Sequence record: OR844650
Reading direction: 5' to 3' (one strand)
DNA length: 64,000 nucleotides
Source of the DNA: Escherichia phage ECO103 4-12-1
Shown here: positions 5,507-6,019 of the stretch, piece by piece
How the letters are laid out: the number at the start of each line of letters is the position of its first letter
Numbering within the stretch: position 1 is the first letter of the stretch
The notes under the pieces: generated by a model
The model's database searches: none
Told to the model about the DNA's origin: nothing
The model's input: the letters and a program-made list of their open reading frames with translations, nothing else
Position numbers and translations under genes: made by a program

Positions 5507-6019
5507 TTAATTAATATTGACGGGGTTTGCTTGAGCATATTTCATCCCCCCGCAGGGGAAAGAACAAAAAAGTTTGACGCTGGTGGCCTTCACATAGTTC
5601 ATATCACGAATTCTCTTACGAGACGAAAGCGGGTTGCTCTGTTTCTCTCTATCGCGGTTCTTGTAGCAACGGTCGTCGGTCTTAAACATCCCGACACATA
5701 ATACAAATACCATATGACCAGTACTTGTATTTGATTTCACAAAATTTGGACGCAACTATATTGTATAATTCCGACCGCATATTTCTTATGAAATCTCCCT
5801 TAGATAATTGGTAAGGTGCGATCCTTATATGTCTATCGAGGAACTCTCTTTATCCTATTGGAGTTCTTTATACAGCCGCATTGCCGTGAGTGGTTCAAAC
5901 TATGCCATCATCTAACGGGTTTCATCTGCTGTTCGTACTGAAAGGACTACTCATCTACCCTCTACATTTTCGAGTGGATTAGGCTTTTAATCATTTCCTT
6001 ATGGGAACCTTTCAGGATT
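5507..6019. other. ORF-poor island with atypical composition (GC-richer 5507-5700); candidate structured RNA or decayed insertion
   Basis: About 510 bp with no convincing ORF in an otherwise gene-dense region; GC-rich hairpin-forming stretches (cccctgcgggggg); only ORF is an 82-aa TTG-initiated basic ORF. Confidence 0.3.

Follow-up and report, generated by a model that had tools for sequence, protein, structure and literature searches.

We analyzed a stretch of 64,000 nucleotides (nt) from Escherichia phage ECO103 4-12-1 (sequence record OR844650), which we will call the window. The original prediction for this DNA had singled out positions 5507-6019 as having no convincing gene. Almost every gene in the window lies on the minus strand, including the genes on either side of this region (6083..6970, which is upstream, and 4859..about 5400, which is downstream). 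The first 20 kb of the window are 96-99% identical to jumbo phages of the genus Asteriusvirus (121Q, PBECO4, G17, E9.1, and others), whose genomes are 350-380 kb in size, and by this resemblance the source of the window is a 121Q/PBECO4-like Asteriusvirus. Between the two flanking genes, on the minus strand from 6085 to 5455, there is very probably a gene in its own right, whose product is a large non-coding RNA with multiple pseudoknots.

The absence of a convincing protein-coding gene is borne out. From 5480 to 6083, between the flanking genes, we found no conserved open reading frame (ORF), and the G+C content is above that of the surroundings. The 82-amino-acid (aa), TTG-initiated ORF that had been noted with distrust (5507..5755, minus strand) does exist, but the distrust was justified: it is a spurious frame within the RNA, confined to close relatives and conserved neither in paralogues nor in orthologues outside the genus. 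The region also contains a 56-aa ORF on the plus strand. Among 37 related copies of the element (see below), the longest ORF varies in strand, position, frame, and length (median 57 aa), so neither the 82-aa nor the 56-aa ORF is a gene. No ORF was kept in frame and position among these homologues.

Conservation and fold of the RNA

A sensitive BLASTN search with 5400-6100 as the query against 50,697 phage records gave matches in 60-69 records, all from Rak2-like jumbo phages. The hosts of these phages belong to nine genera (Escherichia, Salmonella, Klebsiella, Erwinia, Yersinia, Serratia, Cronobacter, Pectobacterium, and Xanthomonas). In distant genera, the non-coding part alone (about 5507-5986) aligns, at 66-75% DNA identity, and the flanking genes no longer do. 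Each matching record has four or five matching places. One candidate explanation had been a remnant of horizontally acquired DNA, with BLASTN as the check for foreign origin. We reject this explanation: the matches lie in Rak2-like phages, mainly over the non-coding stretch, which is the best-conserved local DNA across the nine host genera and is multicopy in each genome.

We assembled the TH47 genome (352 kb, unannotated). It has four copies, at 49.6, 146.3, 262.2, and 345.8 kb, which all point the same way; where they can be aligned to the window query, the identity is about 70-89%, with indels between. (Within the window itself, neither BLASTN nor nhmmer found a second copy.) The neighbors of the TH47 copies are unrelated to each other and copy 3 is antisense to both of its neighbors, so the element is an autonomous unit. 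Where a genome has multiple loci, the RNAs at these loci are of different types, and a given type reappears in different genera. (One type, which includes the window copy and a copy from E. coli, has an insertion in helix P6, and another lacks the internal terminator hairpin.) This recurrence implies that the paralogues are old and have been maintained separately. When we compared flanking genes across genera, one locus shared one upstream gene; the loci are short. We conclude from these alignments that Rak2-like jumbo phages keep four or five anciently diverged, dispersed, and co-oriented copies of the element.

We looked for additional members by scanning IMG/VR and JGI metagenomes with patterns and then searching with profiles. 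This gave 48 distinct full-length copies, which form 37 clusters at 97% identity, and sequence profiles recovered all of the copies. Pattern matches in five GC-rich viral contigs were inspected and discarded as chance.

We modeled the structure of the core (5507-5986, minus strand), which is the part that BLASTN matches in distant phages, using RNAalifold and pair counts on two alignments, A2 (22 sequences) and A3 (37 non-redundant sequences). RNAalifold predicted 88 pairs from A2, with 48 of them compensatory, and 71 pairs from A3, with 44 compensatory. We then tested a model of 76 pairs in 16 helices on A3. Canonical pairs fill 97.6% of the cells, as compared to 36-44% after sliding the 3' partners by 1-3 columns. 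At 52 of the 76 pairs (452 cells), both sides change. The covariation score is 0.486 (versus 0.167 for shuffled alignments), and none of 500 shuffles reached any of five measures. Throughout the alignment, invariant blocks are separated by helices with compensatory changes, and indels fall at the tips of helices. The RNA has about 120 invariant positions, and many of these are unpaired. Taken alone, the window RNA has a minimum free energy (MFE) z-score of -2.81.

The compensatory changes, which are well above those in the controls, belong to a single strand. Many G-U pairs are invariant or nearly so; on the opposite strand these would read as C-A, so the RNA is encoded on the minus strand of the window.

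From 5' to 3', the core begins with the helices P1 (5977-5957), P2 (5950-5935), P3/P3a (5932-5872), and P4 (5866-5841), followed by the P5 hairpin (5826-5813) and by the invariant sequence UAAGGGAG (5802-5795). P6 (5796-5790 with 5739-5733) encloses an insertion module (5789-5740), and it is followed by the long hairpin P7 (5731-5700) and by P8 (5696-5674). P9 (5656-5652 with 5609-5605) encloses both P10 (5649-5625), with an invariant 15-nt loop, AAACAGAGCAACCCG (5644-5630), that exemplifies the unpaired invariant bases, and P11 (5622-5613). Last come P12 (5590-5577), a run of U (5571-5566), the CCCC/GGGG hairpin P13 (5562-5540), and a conserved tail that ends in CCCCGUCAA (5525-5517). Two hairpins that had been noticed by eye in the GC-rich part turn out to be conserved minus-strand helices of this structure: cccctgcgggggg corresponds to the pairing of CCCC (5558-5555) with GGGG (5550-5547), and gtcgg..ccgac corresponds to 5696-5692 with 5678-5674, with four covarying pairs.

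The insertion module, (U/G)UACAA..A(A/U)AG(A/U)U(C/G)CGUC..AAAAUU, recurs: in the window, it lies in P6 (5740-5789), and in other paralogues, it lies in P11. (In A3, the insertions occupy columns about 262-300 and 440-470.) Its presence in two different helices suggests a transposable structural or protein-binding motif.

By scanning all pairs of columns, we also found non-nested pairings. First, in the pseudoknot PK1 (spanning 5598..5718), the loop of P7 (GUCAUAU, 5718-5712) pairs with AUAUGAA (5604-5598), which is 3' of the P9-P11 domain. Six of its 7 base pairs are 100% canonical in the 37 sequences, and there are six covarying variants (UUGUAU/AUACAA, UCGAAU/AUUCGA, UCAUAU/AUAUGA, UCGCAU/AUGCGA, UUGCAU/AUGCAA, and UCAUGU/ACAUGA). 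Second, in PK3, the bulge AUG (5881-5879) pairs with CAU (5831-5829). PK3 is 100% canonical and has two covarying positions (GC in 21 sequences and AU in 16; UA in 35 and CG in 2). Third, in PK2, the loop of P4 (about 5855-5853) pairs with 5804-5802, directly 5' of the invariant UAAGGGA. PK2 is 96% paired and its middle pair exchanges between GC, AU, and UA; its assignment in the window copy is less certain owing to an alignment gap. RNAalifold also proposed a long-range GAUG/CGUC pairing and the outer pairs of a GCUAAGG/CCGUUGC helix. We left these out, as they either do not vary or are at odds with PK2, which has better support.

Overall, the covariation shows that selection maintains an RNA fold on the minus strand, with at least 16 helices, three tertiary pairings, and many invariant unpaired bases. 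The locus does not encode a protein, and it is more than a plain DNA motif. Of the candidates that had been put forward for it, a structured non-coding RNA is the one that covariation strongly supports.

The transcription unit and its annotation

A motif scan identified a putative promoter for the RNA on the minus strand (6057..6085). It comprises a -35-like element, TGAGACA (6085-6079), which contains the stop codon of the upstream gene; a 13-nt spacer; and an extended -10 box, TGATATAAT (6065-6057). Its score in the scan was 10 of 12, with a TG extension. Of the 35 copies with an upstream flank that could be inspected, 34 have a promoter of this form: TG(A/G)(A/G)AC(A/G) (or TGRRACR), a spacer of 13-14 nt, and TGNTATAAT. 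A regular-expression scan with the strict form (TGRGACA, 13 nt, TGNTATAAT) gave a single match in the window and 14 in TH47, all of them on the main coding strand. In the phages CBB and GAP32, a "divergent RpoD-like" promoter with the -35 sequence TGAAACG is found chiefly upstream of DNA-synthesis genes (PMC5259590). The RNA's promoter probably belongs to this TGAAACG-type class, and the RNA would be made from it during infection. Besides the conserved promoter, several copies have a terminator (in several, it is a bidirectional terminator that faces a convergent gene), and one copy is antisense to its neighbors. At the sequence level, these features indicate an independent transcription unit.

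From the position of the -10 box, we infer that transcription starts around 6050. This 5' end (~6050) overlaps the terminator hairpin of the upstream gene (AAGGUGAC...GUCACCUU and a U-run; 6021..6054, minus strand), which is annotated as the terminator of 6083..6970 in phage G17. Because the -10 box abuts this hairpin (6054-6021), a transcript from near 6050 would lack part of its stem. The 5' leader (5984..6019, minus strand), as delimited by the family consensus, consists of AAUCCUGAAAGG, a small hairpin (UUCC-CAUA-AGGAA, 6007-5995), and AUGAUUAAAAG. Across the family, the consensus is AAYYCUGNUUGRC, a hairpin of variable sequence, and GAYGAGUAAA.

Two covarying hairpins lie 3' of the core. 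The final one is at 5491-5458 in the window (GUAGAAUUAGA-CAUGC-GUA-GCAUG-GUAAUUCUAC; minus strand); it is the last conserved element and is present in the MFE fold. Its equivalents in other copies (UUGAC, stem, loop, stem, GGCAAAU) have covarying stems (CAUUC/GAAUG, CAUAC/GUAUG, CAAUC/GAUUG, CUAAC/GUUAG, CUUGC/GCAAG, and CUCGC/GCGAG). The RNA probably ends near 5455. It would then extend from about 6051 to 5455, or about 600 nt (600-750 nt in relatives). The core does lie within the originally proposed 5507-6019, but the feature as a whole reaches beyond it, to the promoter (6085-6057) and the start of the leader (~6051) on one side and to the 3' hairpin (5491-5458) on the other. Between P12 and P13, 31 of the 37 representatives have a terminator-like hairpin and a U-run; the window copy has the U-run alone.

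These boundaries affect the annotation of the locus. In GenBank, the stretch is blank in 121Q, G17, and many other phages, and it has small "hypothetical proteins" in E9.1, SHEFM2K, and JP4. In PP886230, PQ390715, PQ330092, OR699282, and others, 5-7 small coding sequences (CDSs) for hypothetical proteins are placed over the RNA. The small CDSs that cover the RNA are likely to be annotation artefacts. A mechanically called ORF of 206 aa begins at ATG 5479, which is inside the covarying 3' hairpin, and a 203-aa CDS in 121Q likewise starts at an ATG within this hairpin. Because of this location, the true start of the downstream gene should be at about 5400. The annotation of G17, in which the gene starts at about 5400 and encodes 181 aa, is more plausible than the 206-aa or 203-aa start. 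So, besides the spurious small ORFs in several records, the start of a neighboring gene has been misplaced within the RNA.

We also considered the composition of the region, which had been described as atypical and GC-rich. The G+C content is 0.407 in 5507-6019 and 0.454 in 5507-5700, as compared to 0.28-0.31 in the immediate flanks, so the local contrast is real. Across the window, however, the mean is 0.342 with a standard deviation of 0.040, which gives z = 1.63 for 5507-6019, and 6.6% of 513-nt segments match or exceed its G+C content. By itself, then, the composition is not significant. The statement that the region is unlike the rest of the window was also too strong, as the window has far longer stretches in which no ORF reaches 90 aa (39169-43147, 52166-54830, and 43641-45394). 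Rfam and ARAGORN found nothing in these three stretches, and they are probably arrays of very small genes, like a region of 121Q with ORFs of 60-80 aa.

Copies in bacterial islands and neighboring endonucleases

Among 5,426 complete genomes of E. coli, two have one copy of the RNA, at 74% identity. In strain LR-29-1 (NZ_AP027515), the copy sits in an island of roughly 10 kb that adjoins ffs (7950-18600 of the extracted locus), and strain EEC_W5 has an identical match. The ffs island encodes a tyrosine integrase that is split by IS3, a zinc-ribbon/endonuclease-like protein, a small serine recombinase, and a ParB-like protein. The DuOB, DUF488, and mSLOG-DUF4326 genes of the island match a candidate defense system of PADLOC, PDC-M45 (DuOB/DUF488). 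The RNA in LR-29-1 reads toward a non-coding stretch that is rich in GATC and iterons.

Two metagenomic contigs also have the RNA. Their G+C content is 0.49 and they are from bacterial chromosomes, with modABC-galET in one and ppdD-hofBC-coaE-zapD in the other. In both, the RNA lies at the edge of an inserted element, immediately downstream from a large serine recombinase (contigs L073, 2523-5687, and L048, 621-2897). The two elements share 1.39 kb at 86.6% identity, comprising phage-type promoters, the RNA, and a 165-aa ORF; their integration sites differ and their recombinase regions are weakly similar. These two elements may be satellites of jumbo phages.

Another 31 E. coli genomes have a related serine-recombinase island, adjoining yggS, that lacks the core of the RNA. 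The yggS island has a module that resembles the RNA's 3' extension, along with a long GATC/iteron-rich non-coding stretch, which also follows the RNA in the ffs island. In the yggS island of E. coli B4103-1 (locus L088, 3907-4891), there is about 1 kb of non-coding DNA with a TATAAT promoter inside an inverted repeat. The non-coding stretch of the yggS island may be another long RNA or an origin.

The island copies retain the fold of the RNA and the phage-type promoter. We found no copy of the RNA in a plasmid collection, nor in a pattern scan of GTDB species-representative genomes.

In the phages, several copies have endonuclease genes nearby. In the window, a free-standing gene at 3539..4324 (minus strand) encodes a 261-aa protein that matches PHROG 681 ("endonuclease", 6e-35) and the Pfam CapR homology domain. 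This phrog_681 gene is 1.2 kb from the RNA. It is absent from the same place in TH47, where a paralogue is 1.3 kb from copy 3 of the RNA. TH47 has exactly two genes of the HNH family phrog_953 (146.9-147.6 kb and 344.2-344.9 kb), and these are 0.7 and 1.25 kb from copies 2 and 4. We estimate that the chance of both being so near to one of the four copies is about 1e-3. The presence or absence of the window's endonuclease is typical of homing endonucleases. The simplest explanation is that, as in T4, free-standing homing endonucleases have settled next to genes that are very conserved, which would fit an important RNA gene; a mobile unit of RNA and endonuclease is a weaker alternative.

Function and comparison with known systems

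The RNA appears to be an undescribed family that is absent from Rfam, within the limits of the literature that we searched. At the gathering threshold, Rfam 15 had no match in the 64-kb window. At E ≤ 10, searches of the window, seven homologous loci, and the E. coli copy gave chance matches to small nucleolar and small regulatory RNAs, none of which were on the core or recurred. (The families covered include GOLLD, ROOL, OLE, RNase P, tmRNA, group I and group II introns, 6S, SRP, and small ribozymes.) ARAGORN found 0 tRNA or tmRNA genes in the window, in agreement with the original prediction, which had seen no tRNA-like cloverleaf and had proposed searches of this kind; no known RNA turned up. 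A resemblance of ACAGAGCAACCCGCUU to conserved sequences of RNase P was considered and then dropped, as there was no covariance-model match. The literature that we searched, including the genome papers for CBB, fEgEco12, and related phages and a 2026 review of jumbo phages, has no description of the RNA.

What might the RNA do? Tentatively, we propose that it folds compactly and works in trans. (The combined statement, of an RNA gene with a trans-acting product, strikes us as fairly probable.) The folded RNA might serve a protein of the phage or the host as a scaffold or partner, or it might be ribozyme-like or self-assembling, of the GOLLD/ROOL kind. The bacterial integrative islands would have copied the RNA so as to exploit its activity or to interfere with it. 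We prefer a trans-acting folded body because the RNA is dense in covarying helices and has three tertiary pairings and roughly 120 invariant positions. Such an invariant, covarying architecture is typical of RNAs with a defined three-dimensional body, which bind partners, catalyze reactions, or self-assemble. Large RNAs with intricate tertiary structures that are proven by covariation are rare, and they have repeatedly been ribozymes, cores of ribonucleoproteins, or, recently, self-assembling RNA cages.

Several observations weigh against a trans-acting RNA. Four or five diverged and dispersed copies fit cis-acting sites, such as origins, more easily. Most copies hold a terminator-like hairpin and U-run within the conserved unit. 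P12 and the invariant CCCC-UGC-GGGGGG hairpin with its tail, CAAAUCUCGUCAG, have no compensatory changes, and these parts may be recognized sequence-specifically, possibly as DNA. Because the hairpin and tail are 3' of the internal terminator and lack compensatory changes, they could act at the DNA or protein level. Integrase-bearing islands with a copy are also compatible with a cis-acting replication module. We identified neither a catalytic motif nor a partner protein.

The strongest rival explanation, which we consider possible though rather doubtful, is that the unit is an origin or makes a primer transcript: the phage promoter would drive a structured RNA, and near the 3' part of this RNA, a persistent hybrid would form or initiation would be activated. 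The islands would then carry a copy so as to be replicated when the phage infects. This idea draws on the likeness to the RNA II of ColE1, a promoter-driven transcript of several hundred nt whose fold matters, and to the middle-promoter origins of T4 (oriF and oriG), where a phage-specific promoter defines an origin that is present several times per genome. The dispersed copies are about 56-116 kb apart and are co-oriented with the bulk of transcription, and copy 3 of TH47 is located where blocks of genes with opposite orientations meet. The conserved unit includes the promoter, and this is so in the bacterial islands as well. After the internal terminator-like hairpin come the invariant C4/G6 palindrome and the tail, which do not covary and are candidate sites at the level of DNA. 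Copies adjoin integrases in three kinds of enterobacterial island, and the RNA of LR-29-1 points into the GATC/iteron-rich stretch. Also, the replication genes of these phages resemble those of T4 and include UvsW and two RNase H genes (PMC5259590). But with its three covarying tertiary pairings and some 120 invariant positions, many of them unpaired, the RNA goes beyond what known primer RNAs require, and no recognizable AT-rich unwinding element or initiator gene is tied to the unit. We set aside GC skew as a marker of origins: its turns track the orientation of genes and do not mark all of the copies. The original prediction had also raised a regulatory or origin-like region; an origin or primer transcript is a possible form of that proposal, but a simple cis-regulatory leader is unlikely, as discussed below.

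A mobile or selfish RNA, that is, a ribozyme or intron-like parasite that spreads with homing endonucleases, seems improbable. Homing-endonuclease-like genes are within 0.7-1.3 kb of the window copy and of copies 2, 3, and 4 of TH47; the only two phrog_953 genes of TH47 are both beside copies; and the copies are found in unrelated contexts, including bacterial islands. However, the RNA is intergenic and interrupts no gene, has its own promoter, and matches no model of group I introns, group II introns, or small ribozymes, and the endonucleases are adjacent to it rather than internal. The types of paralogues are old and common to several genera, which argues against recent transposition, and free-standing homing endonucleases typically settle by any highly conserved gene.

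We think it very improbable that the RNA is a cis-regulatory leader or attenuator of the downstream gene. A terminator-like hairpin and U-run after a structured RNA, as in most copies, would suit such a role, but the window copy lacks the hairpin. A leader or riboswitch would be expected to go with one family of downstream genes, but the genes downstream of the four TH47 copies are unrelated. Since the downstream genes differ and copy 3 is antisense to both of its neighbors, a leader is unlikely, and several copies end at a bidirectional terminator that faces a convergent gene. As for a small protein gene (the 82-aa ORF), a decayed pseudogene, or a foreign remnant, we dismiss these: the ORF exists and several GenBank records annotate small hypothetical proteins there, but the ORF is not conserved, indels are not multiples of three and are sited in helix tips, substitutions in helices are compensatory, and the element is more conserved than the flanking genes.

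The old paralogues, the phage-specific promoters, the endonuclease neighbors, and the capture by islands all point to a central step in the biology of jumbo phages. One speculation, which we regard as not very likely but worth stating, is that the units are RNA-based replication-initiation modules of Rak2-like phages, in which the phage-specific promoter makes a structured primer or activator RNA, and that integrase-bearing islands have stolen these modules so as to be amplified upon infection. Islands that are amplified in this way would be satellites or mobile defense islands. Or the RNA could be a ribozyme of a new kind, or an RNA machine that assembles itself; the phage would need it, and the islands would imitate it as a decoy. 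The features listed above also point to what may be the first case of satellite or defense islands that exploit an RNA of a jumbo phage.

Returning to the trans-acting RNA that we prefer, we compared it to known systems. ColE1 RNA II and the T4 origins share with it a promoter-driven transcript, which is predicted in our case, along with a G-run and a C-run near the 3' part. There is no homology, though, and the window RNA has far more conserved tertiary structure. Another comparable setting is that of PA5oct, a related jumbo phage, in which RNA-seq defined four long non-coding RNAs (ncRNA001-004), with ncRNA002 being 451 nt long and highly expressed (PMC7318152). Like our RNA, these are in intergenic regions without ORFs in jumbo phages related to the Rak2/121Q group. 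However, nhmmer found no similarity between the family profile and ncRNA001 or ncRNA002, and conserved structure, as seen here, is not reported for the PA5oct RNAs. A large-scale screen of phage contigs from IMG/VR predicted candidate structured RNAs of 30-151 nt (PMC10690425). That screen was also a comparative prediction in IMG/VR phage contigs, but the full pseudoknotted RNA of ~600 nt is not described there; fragments of it could be among the candidates.

Also among the closest systems are GOLLD and ROOL, which are large "ornate" RNAs that are often encoded by phages and prophages (PMC12286853). Like them, the window RNA is long (the lengths overall are about 600-800 nt), is independently transcribed (a prediction in our case), is phage-borne, has many helices and tertiary contacts, and has no coding capacity and no known function. 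Unlike them, it does not match their Rfam models in sequence or structure, it has four or five diverged paralogues per genome that are not beside tRNA genes, it carries a phage-specific promoter, and it is restricted, as far as we found, to Rak2-like jumbo phages and a few enterobacterial islands. The RNA thus joins a small group of large, ornate, phage-borne RNAs, from which it is set apart by its paralogy, its dedicated promoter, its endonuclease neighbors, and its capture by bacterial islands.

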